Counted from the first letter of the stretch, positions 20,857 to 27,804 are shown. The stretch is DNA of 30,850 nucleotides from a virus (IMGVR_UViG_2563366976_000009:1-30850), one strand, 5' to 3'. Made by a program: numbers and translations. The notes: generated from the sequence alone by a model not told the origin.

Positions 20857-22308
20857 ATGGCTACGTGGCAACAGGGTATTAATTCTGGTGGTTTTCTGGC
20901 TGGCATCGGTACGCAAAATGAGAATGCGCCAAAGGCAAGCGACATTAACGCAACGCTTGGTCTGATCCGCGAAAACAATGAACTGGCTCGATCAGGTGCA
21001 AATAACGTTGCTCTGACAGGTCTTCGTGGTCTGGCTGGAGTTGCTGATATTTATAAGCAGCAGCAACAGCAGGAGCGTAAAGCGGCATTCCAGAAAGGTT
21101 ATGCGGATGCTTATGCGTCCGGCGACAGGGAGCAGATGCGTAATCTTATTACAGCATTCCCCGAAGAGTTTGAGGAAGTCCGTAAAGGCATGGGGTATGT
21201 CGATGACGCCCAGCGGGATGATTTTGGCAATCTGGCGCTTAAGGCTCAGGTCGCTTCGTCGCTTGGTCCGGGTGCATTTGGCAGGTTCATGATGGATAAC
21301 GAAAAGGAGATGCGTCGTTTAGGTATCCCTCCAGAAACTATTGCGGAAATGCAGGTTAATGACCCGCAGGGCTTCCAGCACTTCACAGGTAATCTGGCAC
21401 TATTTTCTCTCGGTCATGAGAAGTATTTCGATATCAAAGATCAAATGGAAGGTCGGGATATTGAGCGTGGCAAGTTGGCAGAGACGATTCGCAGCAATAA
21501 AGCTGGGGAAGGTTTAAAGGCGCAAAGCATTGCTGTTAGCCGTGAAAACTCCCTGCGCACTGCTGGAGGTGCTGTTCCTGCATCTGTTAAAGAATATCAA
21601 TATTTCAACAGCCTGTCTCCAGAGCAACAAAAGACATATCTTCGTGTTCGAGGTCGTCCTGATGCTGGCGGGGAGAATGTTGTGCAACTGGCAGATGGCA
21701 GAACGGTAACGGTTGGTAGGAAGCTTCACGGCGCTGGTGCTAATGCGTTCTACGAAGGAATAGACAACGAGGGCAATATGATTCGCGTCCCCGCCAGTTC
21801 TATTGCTGCTCCGGCTACATCGGCAGCTAATGCACAGAATTACGAAATGAAGAAAGATCTTGATGCAATTTCTGGCGCATCAATTGACGATCTTGGCTTC
21901 ATGACAGGTATTACAGGTTCTTCAGGTTCTTTTGCTCTTGGTGCAGATATTCGTAGCAGGGCATCTGGTGTTGAGGAGAGGAGGCTATACAACGCTGCAC
22001 AGCGAATCATGGGCAAAATGCAAAATCAGGGGATTGCAGCAGCCCGAGATATGGGGGCATCTGGCATCAACACCGAAGCAGAGGCCAATAGGTATTTTCA
22101 GGGTATGCCAAAGCCTGATTTCTCAAGTCCTGAAGCGCTGCAACAATCAATGCGCGACATTCAGCAATATACCGACAATTACAACCAGCAATATAACGTT
22201 AATGTTGGTAATGGCGGGAAGAAATCATCAAGGCAACAGCCAGCTACTCAGCAATCAGCAGGAGGTAGCTACACGTCAAAATCAGGCATTCAATTTACGG
22301 TGGAATGA
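20857..22308 (+). CDS. Ejection protein, P22 gp20-like.
   Basis: 483 aa; synteny. Confidence 0.5.
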
Positions 22309-24146
22309 TGAAAGTAACTGCAAACGGTAAGACATTTACCTTTCCTGATGGTACGAGCACCGAAGATATTGGCACCGCCATTGATGAGTATTTTGCTGGT
22401 CAGGCTGTTCAGCAACAAACAGTTAATCAGGCCAATAATGCACCAACACGGGAAGAACCATCATTGATGCAACAAGCTGGCGATTGGCTCACTGGTGGTC
22501 AAAGTGCAGGGCAAATTGCAGAACAGGCTGGTCGTGGTCTGGTAAACATACCATTTGACGTATTGCAGGGCGGCGCAAGTCTGATTAATGCAATCAGCCA
22601 GGGGCTTGGTGGACCCAAGGTTTTGGATGATGTTTATCGTCCAGTAGACAGACCGACAGACCCCTACGCACAAGCCGGTGAAACAATTGGTGGGTATTTA
22701 GTTCCAGGAGTTGGAACGGCAGGAAGCATGGCTATTGGATCACTGGCAGAGGCCGCAAATCAGAAAGGCGATTTCGCACAAAATGCAGCTAAAAATGCCG
22801 GAGTTAACCTTGCCGCTCAGGGTGTTCTTTCCGCCGCAGCAAAGGGAATAGGGCGTGGAATAACGGCTATAAAAGGTGATATTGCGCCAGAAGTGGCGAA
22901 GAAAATTGCCACATCAGAATCGATGGGCGTGACACCAATGACATCTGATGTTATCCCGCCGAAAAATGCTTTCACTCGCGGCCTTACTCAGGATGCCGAG
23001 GGGGCTTTGCTCGGGACAGGCTCAAAGCGAGCGGAGCAATATGCAACGCGTAGTAAGCTGGTAAGTAATTATTTTGACCGTTTTGGTGAGTACAACCCTG
23101 ATGATGTGGTGAAATCTCTGACCACCACGTTAAGGGGGAGGAAGGATGCCGCTGGCGCTGTTATCAATGACGTCACCAATAAAATGGGTAATGCCGCAGT
23201 TGATACCACAAATACCATGAATGCTCTGAATACAGCGATCGCAAGACAGGAACGACTTGGGACGTCTGCCAATCAAAGCCTGCTTACATCCTTGCGTAAC
23301 CTACGTGAAGAATTAGCAAACCCTGCAACTGATTTGGATGTTACGTTTGATCTCTTGCGTCAGCACAGAACAGCATTTAGATCTAATGTTCAGGGAGATG
23401 CTATGGTCTTCCCCAACCAGGCAAAAGCAGCTACCAATATGGTAGAGAATGCAATGTCAAAAGACCTTCGTAACGCAGTTGCTAAAAACCTCGGTGCATC
23501 AGACGCAGCAAAATACCTTAAAGCAAATTCCGATTATGCAAACGTTTATAATAAGGTGCTTAATAAAAACATTGCTAACAAACTCAACAAGGCAAGCAGT
23601 GAAGCCAGTCCTGAACTTATAAATACCGTTGTATTAAGCAGAAAACCATCTGACGTGAAACGAATCTGGAGCGCACTGGATGATAAAGGGAAAGATGCTA
23701 TGCGTGCAGCTTACGTCAGCAAAATAGCGGAAAAGGCCGGTGACTCTCCAGCCAAGTTCATCACTGAAGTTAATAAGCTGAAATCTCAGTCAGGCGGTGA
23801 AATTTACAACACTATTTTTTCTGGAAAGCACATGAAAGAACTTGATGCTCTTCATGAAGTTCTGCAGCAAACAGCAAGGTCAGACACCGCAAATGTAGTA
23901 ACTCAGACGGGGCAATCGCAAGCCAACAGGATAAGGACGATTGGCGCAACTGCGACTCTTGGCGTATCAATGGGGCTTGAGGCTGGTTTCGGTGCAATGA
24001 TGCGCTTGTATGAGTCCAAAGCAGCAAGGAATGCGCTCTTACGTCTGGCAAACACCAAAGCAGGAACACCAGCCTATGAAAGAGCGTTGAGTAACGCTGC
24101 AAATGCCATCAGGCCGCTGCTTGCTACTGAGGCAACACAGCAGTAA
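22305..24146 (+). CDS. Ejection protein, P22 gp16-like.
   Basis: 613 aa; ATGA overlap with the upstream gene; synteny. Confidence 0.5.
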
Positions 24147-24170
24147 CGTATGGGGAATTGGATTCAATCG

Positions 24171-24560
24171 TTAACATTTTCTTTTTACTTTTCCAACAAA
24201 AGCTTTGGTTGAATCCATATTCCCATAACCAGAAATGGTTTTTGACATTAAAACTGTTCCAGTAGGATGTATTACCCATGAGTCGATAACGCGTTGAGTT
24301 TCGCCATTCGCGCCGATTCCTATGATGGAGTTTTTAGACAATGCTTTGTAAGCCATGCCGTCCGCATCTGTCCCAGAATATGTGATGCTGGCATCTTCAC
24401 CGCTTGTCTTAATGATGAATGTTCCACTAAAACCATCTTCTTCCGGATGGAAATTATTTCGTTCTGAATAGCTTATTCCGCGCATATCTCCAACGACCCA
24501 GCACTCTGCTGTAGCCCCAAAAGATATGAATAAGAACATAGCAGCAAGAAATTGCTTCAC
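24171..24560 (-). CDS. Secreted (signal-peptide) protein of unknown function, about 129 aa, in the cargo island.
   Basis: GTG start with AAGGAG RBS 6 nt upstream on the minus strand. N-terminus MKQFLAAMFLFISFGATA/ECW… is a signal-peptidase-I type signal. One Cys near the mature N-terminus and one at the extreme C-terminus. Confidence 0.5.
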   Translation of the reverse strand: MKQFLAAMFLFISFGATAECWVVGDMRGISYSERNNFHPEEDGFSGTFIIKTSGEDASITYSGTDADGMAYKALSKNSIIGIGANGETQRVIDSWVIHPTGTVLMSKTISGYGNMDSTKAFVGKVKRKC

Positions 24561-24590
24561 ACCAAGCTCCTTAGTTTTGAGCAGGATACC

Positions 24591-24956
24591 ATGAAAAAAG
24601 TTAACATTGGAAACGTACCAAAGATGCTCGTTCCGCTCTTTGAGAGCGGTACAATTGTGTTTTGTAGAGACTTTCCAGAATGGCAACGCCTGCATCAAAA
24701 ACTTGGCGTTGACGTGCATGACTCGGACGCCAACGGAGCGTCTCATACAATGAGCAGCGAGAATGGTGTTTTGCATGTGATAGGCGTGTTCAATGGCAAA
24801 CTATCTACTATTGCCCATGAGTGCGCTCACATGGCATTCGATATCTGCTCAAGGGTCGGTGTTGATGTTGAACCAGGAAGAGCCAATGAGACTTACTGCT
24901 ACTTAATGAGCAGGCTTGTTGAGTTCTGCGAGCGACATATCAAAAAGCCGGAGTGA
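24591..24956 (+). CDS. Small HExxH protein (121 aa), putative zinc metallopeptidase of the ImmA/IrrE (M78)-like type.
   Basis: Motif STIAHECAHMAFD followed about 14 residues later by E…ANE. Divergent from the secreted-protein gene, with only about 30 bp between start codons. Confidence 0.45.
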   Translation: MKKVNIGNVPKMLVPLFESGTIVFCRDFPEWQRLHQKLGVDVHDSDANGASHTMSSENGVLHVIGVFNGKLSTIAHECAHMAFDICSRVGVDVEPGRANETYCYLMSRLVEFCERHIKKPE

Positions 24957-24963
24957 CCCGGCT
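24941..24963 (-). terminator. Rho-independent terminator for the minus-strand small gene, overlapping the stop codon of the + strand HExxH gene.
   Basis: AGCCGG-agtgac-CCGGCT stem with the U-run on the minus strand (plus-strand AAAAA at 24942-24946). Confidence 0.5.
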
Positions 24964-24969
24964 TGAGTA

Positions 24970-25149
24970 TTACTTTTTGCTGTCTGGAGTTCGCTTATCC
25001 AATACCCAGCCATGACCTGGCTTTGTTGTTGGTGGAAGCCTTTCGTTGTCCTTGACGGTTGCAAAATTGTCTTTCTTACCGCCGCGTGGGCCAACTTCTT
25101 GGTATATTCCGCCGTTTTTTCCTGTGTTTTCACCTGGTTTTTTCGCCAT
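24970..25149 (-). CDS. Small hydrophilic Gly/Lys-rich protein (59 aa), YjzC-like.
   Basis: MAKKPGENTGKNGGIYQEVGPRGG… resembles the YjzC-type small-protein pattern. GAGG RBS; candidate promoter TTGACT-17-AATATT upstream on the minus strand. Confidence 0.4.
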   Translation of the reverse strand: MAKKPGENTGKNGGIYQEVGPRGGKKDNFATVKDNERLPPTTKPGHGWVLDKRTPDSKK

Positions 25150-25240
25150 GATATACCTCAACATATACCCGTTATTGGGCGATTAAATATTGATCTCATT
25201 TTATAAGTAGTCAATATGGCCCAGGTAAATGCAAAAATTA

Positions 25241-25264
25241 ACCCACCGTCAGGTGGGTTTTTTT
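25241..25264 (+). terminator. Strong, probably bidirectional, rho-independent terminator.
   Basis: ACCCACC-gtca-GGTGGGT stem followed by TTTTTT on the + strand and preceded by an A-run (U-run for the minus strand). Confidence 0.65.
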
Positions 25265-25296
25265 ATCTTCTCTACTTTAAAGATTAAGGAAATACC

Positions 25297-25482
25297 ATGA
25301 CCATAGAAGAACGTCTGAACAACATTGAGTTGAATCAAACCCTGCTTGACCAGCGACTTTCAGATCTTGAGCTTAAAGATCTAGATGTGCAAATATCAGA
25401 AGCAGAAGCCAAGCTCTCCAGCTTAAACCACCGCAGGAAGCAAATCCGCGACAGAATTACTCGTGGACGCGGAGGCTGTTAA
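25297..25482 (+). CDS. Hypothetical 61-aa coiled-coil protein.
   Basis: AAGGAAA RBS before the ATG; heptad-like leucine spacing; no family recognised. Confidence 0.35.
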   Translation: MTIEERLNNIELNQTLLDQRLSDLELKDLDVQISEAEAKLSSLNHRRKQIRDRITRGRGGC

Positions 25483-25559
25483 GGTGTGATGGTAATCCTT
25501 GCTCACTAAATTTAAGGATGCGAATCTTTCCGGCCATAGGAGTAATCATGATTTACCCA

Positions 25560-26096
25560 TCAAACAACCCACCAGTTTGCCTGATTGGATACCAGCCTTG
25601 CAGTTTTTATGGAATTAATTATGCCATGCTCAAGAGCCTTGTTAGCATCCAAAATGGTCGAGTCTGCTATCAGGGATGCCCACCTAATATGGGTTCCGAT
25701 GTCGATATTGAACGTCTCAACGAAGCGATCAAGATCGTTATCGAGGCATTTCCCGTACTCTCTCAATCTGGCATGGTCGGCGGCTGGGGAGGCAAAGCAC
25801 CATAATAGAGGATGTAACAGGAATCTTGATAATGGGTTTGCGAAACGTTCTGAGCCAGCCAGGAAAACGATATTAGCTATGGATTCAACATTGCTTATGT
25901 TGTGAGTTCTAACGGTAACAGGGAGTGACTTAAGAAAGTTATACGCAGTAAAGCCAGCGGCAGTTTCCCCTCCCTGACTTGATATATGGATATTTAATTC
26001 AGTTGCGCCTTGAGATAATGCGGTGAGACAGTGGTTCTGAAGTTGCCCAACAGTGGCAGTGTTAACGGGGCATAAGAAATGAATTGTGTGCAGCAT
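25560..26096 (-). CDS. ClpP-fold (Clp protease-like) serine protease, 178 aa, translationally coupled to mnt.
   Basis: …IHISSQGGETAAGFTAYNFLKSLPVTVRTHNISNVESIANIVFLAGSERFANPLSRFLLHPL… aligns with the ClpP core (INSPGG…TAG…GQAASMG…LPNSRxMIHQP). The Ser and His positions appear conserved. Its ATG overlaps the mnt stop (TAATG). Confidence 0.6.
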   Translation of the reverse strand: MLHTIHFLCPVNTATVGQLQNHCLTALSQGATELNIHISSQGGETAAGFTAYNFLKSLPVTVRTHNISNVESIANIVFLAGSERFANPLSRFLLHPLLWCFASPAADHARLREYGKCLDNDLDRFVETFNIDIGTHIRWASLIADSTILDANKALEHGIINSIKTARLVSNQANWWVV

Positions 26097-26350
26097 TATT
26101 TATCATCCTTGCCATAAATCTTTTTAAGTGTCTCAAACACAACGGCCTTGAACTGCTCTGCTTGCTGATCAGCCAAGCGTTCAGCTTCGTCTCGATAGCC
26201 TGCAATCGGTGATGGCTTTGAGAGAGCATCCTGAACGATTTGTAATAACTCAGAGTTCATTGACCTTCCGTTAGCCTCTGCTCTTAATTTCAATTTTTCT
26301 CTTACTTCCAAAGGCATACGGAAGTTAAAGTGCGGATCGTTTCTAGCCAT
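26096..26350 (-). CDS. mnt: Mnt repressor (ribbon-helix-helix), P22 Mnt-like.
   Basis: MARNDPHFNFRMPLEVREKLKLRAEANGRSMNSELLQIVQDALSKPSP… near-identical to remembered P22 Mnt. Confidence 0.85.
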   Translation of the reverse strand: MARNDPHFNFRMPLEVREKLKLRAEANGRSMNSELLQIVQDALSKPSPIAGYRDEAERLADQQAEQFKAVVFETLKKIYGKDDK

Positions 26351-26440
26351 GCCATCACCCCAAGTTAGTGTATTGACATGATAGAAGCACTCTACTATAT
26401 TCTCAATAGGTCCACAGTGGACCTATATTGTGAGGTAAAT
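26351..26440. promoter_or_regulatory. immI control region. Pant (-35 TTGACA 26373-26378, -10 TATATT 26396-26401); Arc operator ATGATAGAAGCACTCTACTAT (26378-26398); Mnt operator palindrome AGGTCCACAGTGGACCT (26408-26424); divergent Pmnt on the minus strand (TTGAGA-17-TATCAT).
   Basis: Sequence matches the remembered P22 Pant/Oarc/Omnt arrangement; hexamers and palindromes read directly. Confidence 0.7.
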
Positions 26441-26599
26441 ATGAAAGGAATGAGCAAAATGCCGCAGTTCAATTTGCGGTGGCCTAAAGAAGTATTGGAT
26501 TTGGTGCGTAAGGTGGCGGAAGAGAACGGGCGATCTGTTAACTCTGAGATTTACAAGCGAGTGTTGGACAGCCTGAAGAGAGAGGGGATAACGGTATGA
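26441..26599 (+). CDS. arc: Arc repressor (ribbon-helix-helix).
   Basis: MKGMSKMPQFNLRWPKEVLDLVRKVAEENGRSVNSEIYKRVLDSLKREGITV matches remembered P22 Arc. The ORF-track start at 26378 is an upstream extension through the operator region. Confidence 0.9.
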   Translation: MKGMSKMPQFNLRWPKEVLDLVRKVAEENGRSVNSEIYKRVLDSLKREGITV

Positions 26600-26817
26600 G
26601 GTTTATTGAGGTTGATGAGATTGGCTATGAGAATGCACTTGGTAGAGGTAAATCTTTAGTTAACATTGATGGCATTGAATCGATAAGGAGTGGTGAATTT
26701 ACGGAGATCAGAATGATGTCAGGCGGAATCATTCCTTGCCGTGATTCAGTAGAGTCAATCAAATCAAAAATGAGTGGTCAGTGGCTTTATAGCTACAGTG
26801 ACTTACAAAAACAGTGA
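26596..26817 (+). CDS. Hypothetical 73-aa protein inserted between arc and ant, with ATGA overlap to the arc stop.
   Basis: ORF read from the sequence; no family recognised; not part of the canonical P22 immI gene set as I remember it. Confidence 0.4.
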   Translation: MRFIEVDEIGYENALGRGKSLVNIDGIESIRSGEFTEIRMMSGGIIPCRDSVESIKSKMSGQWLYSYSDLQKQ

Positions 26818-26880
26818 AGCCCCAACTGCGGGAACAGTCAGGGCTTCGGTATCGTAAAACCACGCATAGGAATTAACGAC

Positions 26881-27804
26881 ATGACGAGTGTAGCAATTGC
26901 AGAACATACAATCAACGTTCCATTCCACGGAACAAATCTCTTTTTGGTCAGCATTAACAATGAACCTTACGTTCCTATGAAACCCGTTGTAGAAGGCATG
27001 GGTATGGTTTGGGCTGCTCAATTTGTTAAATTAAAACAGAGATTTGTCAAAGGTATTTCGGAAATCGAAATACCTTCTGCTGGCGGTAAACAGTTAATGA
27101 TATGCCTTGCCTTTCGTAAGTTTGCGGCTTGGCTTTCAAGCATTCAGCCAAACAAAGTCCGCCCTGAAATCCGCGACAAGGTAATCCAGTATCAGGAAGA
27201 GTGTGACGATGTGCTCTACGAGTACTGGACTAAAGGCCATGTGGTTAACCCGCGCAAAGCTAAAAAGGCATTGCCGGGGAAAATCACCACTGAACAGCAG
27301 GAAGCCATTAAACAACTCGTCATGAGTCGCGGTCAGTCTCTGCCAAAAGAAAAACAGGCTAAGGCGATGATCACCATGTGGTCGTCACTGAAATCCCATT
27401 TTGGGTGTTCATACAAAGAAATCAGCGAGGAGCAGTTTACCGAAGCTCTGTCACTTGCTGCTCGCGTTCCGCTTGAAGGTGAGTTCATTGGCAAACAAGA
27501 GAAGAAAACCAACGAGCTTTCTGCAAAAGAAGCAAACAGCCTTGTATGGTTATGGGATTATGCCAACCGTTCACAGGCATTATTCCGCGAATTGTATCCG
27601 GCGCTAAAACAAATTCAATCGAACTATTCAGGCAGATGTCATGACTGCGGTTATGAGTTCTCCCGTATTATCGATATGGCGAGAGATGTTTTAATCAACC
27701 ATACACGAGATGTTGATATTAATGAGCCAGGCGGACCGACGAACCTTTCAGCATGGATAAGACTTAAGAATAAAGAATTACCTCCTTCAGTACATAACTA
27801 CTGA
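26881..27804 (+). CDS. ant: Antirepressor Ant.
   Basis: N-terminal …VPFHGTNLFLV…PYVPMKPVVEGMGMVW…PEIRDKVIQYQEECDDVLYEYWTKG parallels remembered P22 Ant; position after arc. Confidence 0.8.
   Translation: MTSVAIAEHTINVPFHGTNLFLVSINNEPYVPMKPVVEGMGMVWAAQFVKLKQRFVKGISEIEIPSAGGKQLMICLAFRKFAAWLSSIQPNKVRPEIRDKVIQYQEECDDVLYEYWTKGHVVNPRKAKKALPGKITTEQQEAIKQLVMSRGQSLPKEKQAKAMITMWSSLKSHFGCSYKEISEEQFTEALSLAARVPLEGEFIGKQEKKTNELSAKEANSLVWLWDYANRSQALFRELYPALKQIQSNYSGRCHDCGYEFSRIIDMARDVLINHTRDVDINEPGGPTNLSAWIRLKNKELPPSVHNY

Follow-up and report, generated by a model that had tools for sequence, protein, structure and literature searches.

Genes and signals between gene 16 and mnt

We analysed a stretch of 30,850 nucleotides from a P22-like (Lederbergvirus-type) phage (IMGVR_UViG_2563366976_000009:1-30850), which is called the window throughout. 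Our interest was in the interval between the homologue of gene 16, which encodes the last ejection protein, and mnt, the gene of the maintenance repressor. Five open reading frames (ORFs) on alternating strands were found here, all inside 24150-26100, together with two hairpins. We consider it rather probable that this interval makes up the left half of the 'ant moron' known from P22-like phages, consisting of a conserved scaffold and independently exchangeable cargo modules, and that these follow the model of expression and function proposed below. The features are the following.

22305-24146, plus strand: homologue of gene 16, the last ejection (DNA transfer) protein; ORF of 613 residues, aligned to P22 gp16
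24171-24560, minus strand: secreted protein, the cassette in the sieA slot (phrog_2651); 129 residues, GTG start, N-terminal hydrophobic signal-like segment
24561-24621, minus strand: shared expression signals of the sieA slot; Shine-Dalgarno sequence AAGGAG and the equivalent of the P22 sieA promoter
24591-24956, plus strand: hkcC (phrog_1365); 121 residues, motif HECAH
24945-24964, both strands: hairpin 1, between the convergent hkcC and orf59a; from scan and folding
24970-25149, minus strand: homologue of orf59a (phrog_3202); 59 residues, rich in Gly and Lys; PHROG E value 7e-31
25186-25214, minus strand: putative sigma-70 promoter of orf59a; TTGACT, 17 nt, AATATT; from a consensus scan
25240-25259, both strands: hairpin 2 (tMNT of HK620); from scan and folding
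25297-25482, plus strand: cc61, helical, probably coiled-coil (phrog_7586); 61 residues, PHROG E value 1e-43
25560-26096, minus strand: ClpP-like protein; 178 residues, Pfam CLP_protease
26096-26350, minus strand: mnt, ribbon-helix-helix maintenance repressor; Pfam Arc 94.5 bits, Repressor_Mnt 46.1 bits

All five proteins match a PHROG family (E values from 7e-21 to 1e-60). Among homologous loci the polymorphic sites, counted at first, second and third codon positions, are distributed 0:2:8 in cc61, 2:2:27 in hkcC, 3:1:14 in orf59a and 2:3:9 in the gene of the secreted protein; for the ClpP-like gene, comparison with a 79% identical homologue from Pectobacterium gave 34:16:82 substitutions. 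Because of this bias towards third positions we conclude that purifying selection acts on all five genes. A sixth candidate, the ORF at 25518-25805 on the plus strand (phrog_7758, E value 1.6e-61), lies antisense to the ClpP-like gene and was rejected, as the substitutions fall on the third positions of the ClpP sense frame and neither its stop codon nor its sequence is conserved in the homologue. To judge from these sequences, phrog_7758 looks like a family of shadow-ORF annotations.

Hairpin 1 folds with -11.7 and -12.1 kcal/mol on the two strands (z scores of -3.3 and -4.4 against shuffled sequences). For hairpin 2 the energies are -15.5 kcal/mol on the plus strand and -13.6 kcal/mol on the minus strand (z scores of -6.0 and -4.1); it is strong on the plus strand, where a run of seven T follows, and terminator-like on the minus strand too. 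Seven terminator-like sites were counted in the region, compared with 2.5 +/- 1.5 in shuffled sequences.

A preliminary description of this DNA had listed five small genes on alternating strands between the last ejection gene and mnt, and the ORFs, the PHROG matches and the codon-position bias bear this out. Both hairpins, placed there at 24941-24963 and 25241-25264, are real and were located by our scan within a few nucleotides of these positions. The label 'ClpP-like' is backed by the Pfam family CLP_protease (PF00574; 44.4 bits against a cut-off of 20.2, profile positions 37-180 of 182), 'HExxH' by conservation of the motif across the hkcC family, and 'secreted' by a signal-like sequence and an AlphaFold2 (AF2) model in which a beta-barrel starts at residue 18. 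The name 'YjzC-like' has to be dropped, since Pfam PF14168 scores only 19.4 bits against a cut-off of 25 (E value 0.0013); in P22 this 59-residue gene is annotated as orf59a. 'Coiled-coil' can be kept for cc61 as a probable description, drawn solely from sub-threshold matches (XhlA, E value 0.02).

Conserved scaffold and exchangeable cargo

Positions 24558-25263 of the window form a block of 0.7 kb that is about 94-97% identical to P22, HK620 and an E. coli prophage. This block holds the promoter, ribosome-binding site (RBS) and GTG of the sieA slot, hkcC, hairpin 1, orf59a with its promoter region, and hairpin 2. The gene with the HExxH motif is named hkcC in the annotation of HK620, and its ORF is intact and unannotated in the P22 record BK000583. 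Hairpin 1 corresponds to the annotated 'mnt terminator' of P22 and to the 'bidirectional terminator tORF59A' of HK620, and hairpin 2 to tMNT of HK620; the latter abuts the mnt stop codon in P22 and lies 0.83 kb from it in the window. Two differences from P22 were found. The sieA gene is replaced, and tMNT is separated from mnt by an insert of about 0.83 kb (25264-26095) with cc61 and the ClpP-like gene. Neither P22 nor HK620 has these two genes, and such a patchy occurrence among relatives is expected of morons. The unannotated hkcC homologue of P22 (BK000583 13849-14226; positions 2522-2899 of our P22 extract L001) is nearly identical to that of the window, and the sieA promoter lies inside its 5' end.

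These comparisons change how the interval is to be understood. It had been taken for an island standing in for sieA and hkcC, with two hairpin terminators separating its units. However, the HExxH gene is hkcC itself, intact in P22, and both hairpins are backbone terminators annotated in P22 or HK620. That none of the genes has a standard P22-like function is wrong for two of the five, hkcC and orf59a, which are P22 genes. No structural or lysis role is assigned to any of the five, and gene content varies widely among relatives.

To describe this variation we fetched 80 loci from IMG/VR, anchored on hkcC; layout counts are given over 81 loci. Within the 300 bp beside the conserved block we found 12 unrelated sequence clusters, and on the right side the layouts run to dozens, in agreement with the earlier suggestion of a hypervariable cargo region in P22-like phages. 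The secreted protein of the window is present in 12 of the 81 loci, and three of these 12 carry the ClpP-like gene too; conversely, the secreted protein was found in three of the six loci with the ClpP-like gene. We also searched 5426 complete E. coli genomes, where the gene of the secreted protein occurs in 147, hkcC-orf59a in 132 and the ClpP-like gene in 128; none of these genomes contains at least 80% of the whole interval. Two IMG/VR contigs carry the full arrangement, with 99.7-100% identity. Because the genes assort independently, the five do not constitute one system.

The left slot is defined by expression signals that do not change with the cargo. All 12 cassettes share one GTG, situated 30 nt from the ATG of hkcC on the opposite strand and preceded by AAGGAG. 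The sieA promoter annotated in P22 (L001 2534-2564) aligns to positions 24591-24621 of the window, within the first 31 nt of hkcC, and this segment hardly differs between P22, the window and E. coli LR882493. Since promoter, RBS and GTG are all shared, they are supplied by the scaffold, and the exchange of cassettes begins immediately behind the start codon. As read from the sequences, most cassettes begin with a hydrophobic signal, a lipobox or a transmembrane-like segment; the alternatives include SieA, hkcB (a membrane anchor with a coiled coil), a 161-residue lipoprotein and several small membrane proteins.

The secreted protein of the window has an invariant Cys19 and a nearly invariant C-terminal Cys. 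Its AF2 model is an all-beta barrel, predicted to be eight-stranded, with a predicted local distance difference test (pLDDT) score of 83. A sequence search gave no significant match in the PDB, and tblastn with P22 SieA found no match in the window. Because of its position in the slot, its promoter and its predicted export, and on these grounds only, we suggest that the secreted barrel is most likely an envelope-level stand-in for SieA that interferes with incoming phage.

The hkcC gene is strongly conserved. Nucleotide identity is 97-100% in 89 loci, third positions account for 27 of the 31 polymorphic sites, and the protein is 100% identical in many IMG/VR loci. Its family is large, as a profile search of 1.84 billion representative proteins yielded 517 clusters at 50% identity with E values up to 0.001; among the best 150 matches listed, almost all are stand-alone proteins of about 110-140 residues. 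In 38 homologues, with identities down to 24%, H76, E77 and E100 are invariant and H80 is kept in at least 90%. The HExxH motif is followed by NE, and the distance from the first His to this Glu is 24 residues, equal to the spacing of H142 and E166 in thermolysin. The AF2 model is confident (pLDDT 89). Sequence, family-profile and fold searches with hkcC found no Pfam, PDB or significant fold or profile match to any peptidase. We regard hkcC as a member of an uncharacterised family that Pfam lacks and that carries a gluzincin-like motif. For orf59a, a sequence search gave no significant PDB match, and no paper on the function of hkcC or orf59a was found in the PMC and bioRxiv text.

Homologues of orf59a with 63-80% identity stand convergent to hkcC homologues in unrelated prophages. 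We compared three such contexts, in which the hkcC homologues are 43-62% identical, namely siphovirus-type prophages of Rosenbergiella and Klebsiella oxytoca and one metagenomic contig. All three have a GC-rich hairpin, of differing sequence, between the stop codons of hkcC and orf59a. A second hairpin beyond the upstream region of orf59a was found in two of the three (L179 and L182), both of which are without an mnt gene. By our reading of the sequences the promoter hexamers of orf59a are kept and the spacer has diverged (TTGACT-17-AATATT in L182, TTGAGA-17-AATATT in L183). The orf59a gene has a promoter-like site and hairpins on both sides, and the pair hkcC-orf59a with its hairpins is a mobile convergent two-gene module. 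Moreover, tMNT looks like the boundary terminator of this module rather than a part of mnt.

The small gene cc61 was found in 19 of the 81 loci, always between tMNT and a variable minus-strand gene, which is the ClpP-like gene in six loci, encodes a 69-residue protein in ten and a secreted protein of 105 residues in four. An AAGGA lies 7 nt upstream of its ATG. Against XhlA (Pfam PF10779) cc61 scores 15.5 bits with a cut-off of 34.7, and PGAP uses the name XhlA for a longer ORF call in a related prophage. The terminator scan found no hairpin between cc61 and the convergent ClpP-like gene; therefore the Pmnt transcript would run antisense through cc61 to tMNT.

Could the five genes nevertheless act together as a multi-gene system of defence against phages, or as an island dedicated to defence? 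The place is a known hotspot, the P22 exclusion gene sieA is located there, and the set comprises two protease-like proteins and one exported protein. However, the independent assortment described above, with hkcC and orf59a present in P22 without the other three, and the lack of any complete E. coli genome with at least 80% of an interval whose parts occur in 128-147 genomes each, make this highly improbable. The defence models of PADLOC-DB 2.0.0 gave no match for four of the five proteins at E values up to 1, and cc61 matched only PbeC (E value 0.001, 15.7 bits) over a coiled-coil stretch. PADLOC, Pfam and NCBIfam searches with the five proteins and ten alternative cassettes returned nothing significant beyond ClpP, Mnt and Rap1a. 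The PADLOC result says little, because SieA itself gives no PADLOC match. Of the earlier term 'moron or defence hotspot', the first part agrees with the presence and absence of genes among relatives; for the defence part no positive evidence was found. A narrower proposal concerns hkcC and orf59a, which could be a functional pair, either a late metallopeptidase that neutralises a small prophage protein or a toxin/antitoxin-like couple, regulated by convergent transcription. The convergent order and the hairpin between the stop codons were kept in every context checked for hkcC homologues of 43-62% identity, over three phage settings, and purifying selection on either gene is strong. There are exceptions to the pairing, however. 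In about 11 of the 81 loci hkcC stays and a 74-residue membrane protein replaces orf59a, and distant hkcC homologues sit in co-directional operons without orf59a. We therefore regard a functional pair as a possibility, and a doubtful one; the description as a mobile module within a scaffold that accepts other cargo is the one we retain.

Gene 20 (20857-22308) precedes the gene 16 homologue, which forms the left edge of the variable region and is annotated as P22_gp16 or DNA transfer protein in homologous loci. At the other end mnt is both the right boundary and the first gene of the operon with the ClpP-like gene, and a promoter-like pair at 26373-26406 aligns with the Pant/Pmnt operators annotated in P22. 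Beyond mnt follow arc, ant (26881-27804) and, from 27905, an endosialidase-type tailspike gene. The gap between arc and ant measures 282 bp in the window and 69 bp in P22; it is filled by an ORF of 73 residues (26596-26817, plus strand) that overlaps the arc stop codon, has no family hit except FlbD (E value 0.025) and was found in one other locus (L048). Directly after it, the sar antisense RNA is intact (26813-26879, minus strand; Rfam RF00262, 76.6 bits). Of the named phages in the collection, the K1-specific coliphage CUS-3 comes closest to the window, with 94.6% identity over 57% of a 24.9-kb query. Its content at this locus differs (CP000711, L170 17484-19405), comprising hkcB, hypothetical genes of 139 and 199 residues and two tandem mnt-type genes; hkcC, orf59a and the ClpP-like gene are all absent from the CP000711 annotation of this locus.

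The ClpP-like gene in the mnt operon

The ClpP-like protein belongs to the wider ClpP family, and its best scores against the NCBIfam ClpP equivalogs (19-40 bits) are below every one of their cut-offs (228-361 bits). Residues 3-175 match the PDB entry 9UXT, the ClpP1 of Pseudomonas plecoglossicida (PpClpP1), with an E value of 1.8e-35 and about 40-50% identity. S72 and H95 do not vary among the window protein and 20 relatives. The column of Asp171 of E. coli ClpP is occupied by Ser or Ala in all 21 members and the preceding residue is variable, so that the canonical triad is incomplete. The proteins begin about 24 residues into mature E. coli ClpP and are without the N-terminal axial loops. 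Most likely, the protein would assemble into a gate-less tetradecamer with peptidase activity and without binding to ClpX, or else mix with host ClpP as its solved Pseudomonas relative does.

The gene is translationally coupled to the repressor. Its ATG overlaps the mnt stop codon (TAATG), and AAGGA, its Shine-Dalgarno sequence, is contained in the final Lys-Asp codons of the repressor gene. A promoter for the ClpP-like gene alone was not found, and it would be transcribed from Pmnt. In all but one of the E. coli P22-like loci examined, a full-length gene with 97-100% identity starts on the stop codon of a Mnt-type repressor, and the repressors that it follows have at least seven types of N-terminus. 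Identity between loci jumps to 100% at the ATG of the ClpP-like gene and, in several of them, is lost immediately beyond the stop codon of this gene; the cassette is thus bounded exactly by the stop codon of the repressor and its own. A P22-like prophage of Pectobacterium has the same coupling at 79% identity. Relatives with 52-58% identity are lone genes on the opposite strand, located in the gap between the lysis genes and the terminase of Klebsiella lambdoid prophages and in the gap between tail and lysis genes of a Chromobacterium contractile-tail prophage. The Klebsiella homologue (L003-L005 6001-6717) is called with 238 residues, compared with 178-202 for its relatives, and its start is probably over-extended. 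A PhageMetallopep gene (PF18894) adjoins the ClpP-like gene in Klebsiella lambdoid prophages (L003, L005 5100-6717); another adjoins hkcC-orf59a in the metagenomic contig mentioned above (L179 544-1968).

The position after mnt can also hold other cargo. In the prophage of E. coli strain ETEC1747 (NZ_CP122722; L187 1931-2266, minus strand) the mnt-coupled slot is occupied by a Rap1a/Tai immunity protein of the type VI secretion system (T6SS), with a Pfam score of 55.3 bits. This gene overlaps the end of the mnt-type gene by 4 nt and is an orphan T6SS immunity gene in a P22-like prophage. Since Rap1a sits in the same slot, the post-mnt position behaves like a site from which cargo of use to the lysogen is expressed, with the ClpP-like gene as one of its portable occupants. 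The ClpP-like gene and hkcC-orf59a may also be alternative cargo of a second hotspot. We considered Mnt and the ClpP-like protein as a toxin-antitoxin pair and rejected this, as each occurs without the other.

Two other roles were considered for the ClpP-like protein. It could be an accessory of immunity I, made together with Mnt and degrading Ant, Arc or another regulator, with no action on other phages or on host proteostasis. The stop/start coupling to a Mnt-type repressor, with the Shine-Dalgarno sequence inside the last mnt codons, is in line with such a role, and an Arc-family gene stands beside the ClpP-like gene in complete genomes according to PGAP annotation. The lone relatives in lambdoid and contractile-tail prophages speak against it, however, as Mnt, Arc and Ant are absent among their called neighbours, and so does Rap1a, which makes the slot look like a general site of cargo expression. 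We consider an immunity accessory unlikely. Even less can be said for a prohead (head maturation) protease or a remnant of one, the annotation given in phage phiv205-1, although the best PHROG match is to phrog_94 'head maturation protease' (E value 7e-21) and the NCBIfam model Clp_rel_HeadMat is hit. That hit, of 49.3 bits, is far under the cut-off of 120 bits. The gene is not part of the cluster of head genes and stands on the other strand, in the mnt operon, it has no fused scaffold or capsid domain, and the closest characterised relative of its product is a cellular-type tetradecameric ClpP paralogue. Moreover, P22 proheads mature without proteolysis. A head protease is therefore hardly credible, and the portable occupant of an expression slot remains our reading of this gene.

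Every member of the ClpP-like family with an inspected neighbourhood sits in a prophage, and PMC12900304, which describes PpClpP1, does not mention phage. A scan of genome contigs with the ClpP-like alignment returned eight enterobacterial loci and none from Pseudomonas, and our literature search found no paper on a prophage ClpP paralogue of this kind. Since the inspected members of its family all sit in prophages, PpClpP1 may be prophage-derived. A broader and quite tentative idea, to which we give limited weight, is that prophages of several types carry a gate-less, Asp-less ClpP paralogue that would be made in the lysogen and co-assemble with host ClpP, PpClpP1 being of the same cargo family. 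If true, proteolysis by ClpXP and ClpAP would be reprogrammed, as a form of prophage-conferred immunity or of lysogeny control.

Working model and comparison with known systems

We propose that the alternation of strands reflects two expression programmes. In the lysogen the minus-strand genes would be expressed: PsieA would serve the secreted protein, a separate sigma-70 promoter would serve orf59a, and Pmnt would serve both Mnt and the ClpP-like protein. On the plus strand, hkcC and cc61 would be read by the PLate transcription that heads to the tailspike gene. The secreted barrel would act in the envelope against incoming phage, and the ClpP-like protein, gate-less or mixed with host ClpP, would in either case alter proteolysis in lysogens. 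In this account the layout is what we observe, and for the functional part we infer the roles of all five proteins. This last point weighs against the account, as do several others: the assignment of strands to programmes is extrapolated from P22, four of the five proteins drew a blank in the PADLOC, Pfam and NCBIfam searches, other cargo of the slot, namely Rap1a, is not anti-phage, and the third catalytic residue is missing in the ClpP-like protein, whose activity and contact with E. coli ClpP are predicted.

Overall, the region illustrates how cargo is loaded in P22-like prophages. One slot offers a shared promoter, RBS and start codon to exported proteins; a second, coupled in translation to Mnt, accommodates either a ClpP-like protease or a T6SS immunity protein. 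Such slots are compact, sequence-defined places in which to seek genes of superinfection exclusion and lysogenic conversion. The ClpP-like gene is the most interesting and most testable lead, as the structure of a close relative has been solved and this relative mixes with canonical ClpP; that a phage carries such a gene suggests that prophages may adjust proteolysis in their hosts. The pair hkcC-orf59a is unexplained yet widespread and is carried by P22 itself.

Like the thermolysin-type gluzincin metallopeptidases, hkcC has an HExxH motif and a downstream Glu with the same spacing, kept throughout its family. SieA is a polytopic inner-membrane protein of P22 that mediates superinfection exclusion (PMC10883804). 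The secreted protein shares with it the slot, the scaffold of promoter, RBS and start codon and, by prediction, export to the envelope. The two are unrelated in sequence, however, and for the window protein the prediction is a signal peptide followed by a soluble eight-stranded barrel in the periplasm.

Studies of PpClpP1 (9UXT) have demonstrated an N-terminally truncated protein with a Ser-His-Pro triad, which forms a homotetradecamer with an axial pore of 42.7 A, does not bind ClpX and, together with canonical ClpP, forms a more active hetero-tetradecamer (PMC12900304). The window protein shares the truncation that removes the axial loops, the Ser and the His, and lacks the canonical Asp as well. 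They differ at the position of the third residue, which is Pro in PpClpP1 and Ser in the window protein. PpClpP1 was studied as a chromosomal paralogue, whereas the window gene is prophage cargo in the mnt operon, known from its sequence. With canonical E. coli ClpP the window protein has the fold family in common, and the catalytic Ser and His align. It is, however, only 27% identical, without the loops of the gate and of the contact with ClpX and ClpA and without an equivalent of Asp171, and its C-terminal NWWV motif is specific to its own family.

The arrangement as a whole is closest to the 'ant moron', the stretch from gene 16 to the tailspike gene of P22-like phages, which comprises immunity I and the sieA region and for which Villafane, Casjens et al. 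(2008, PMC2629481) describe ten types in sixteen genomes. The description of P22 given there lists sieA, hkcC and 59a in the ant moron, and PLate transcription is reported to run through it into the tailspike gene. The window has the same position, the scaffold genes hkcC, 59a, mnt, arc, sar and ant, and a variable set of further genes. In contrast to the published cases, it has a secreted beta-barrel protein in the sieA slot, cc61 and an mnt-coupled ClpP-like gene, which go unmentioned in the part of PMC2629481 at hand. Our comparison adds the anatomy of the slots, with the GTG start shared by all left-slot cassettes and the stop/start-coupled slot after mnt. The cargo is new at the level of its individual members, in a region already known to be variable.

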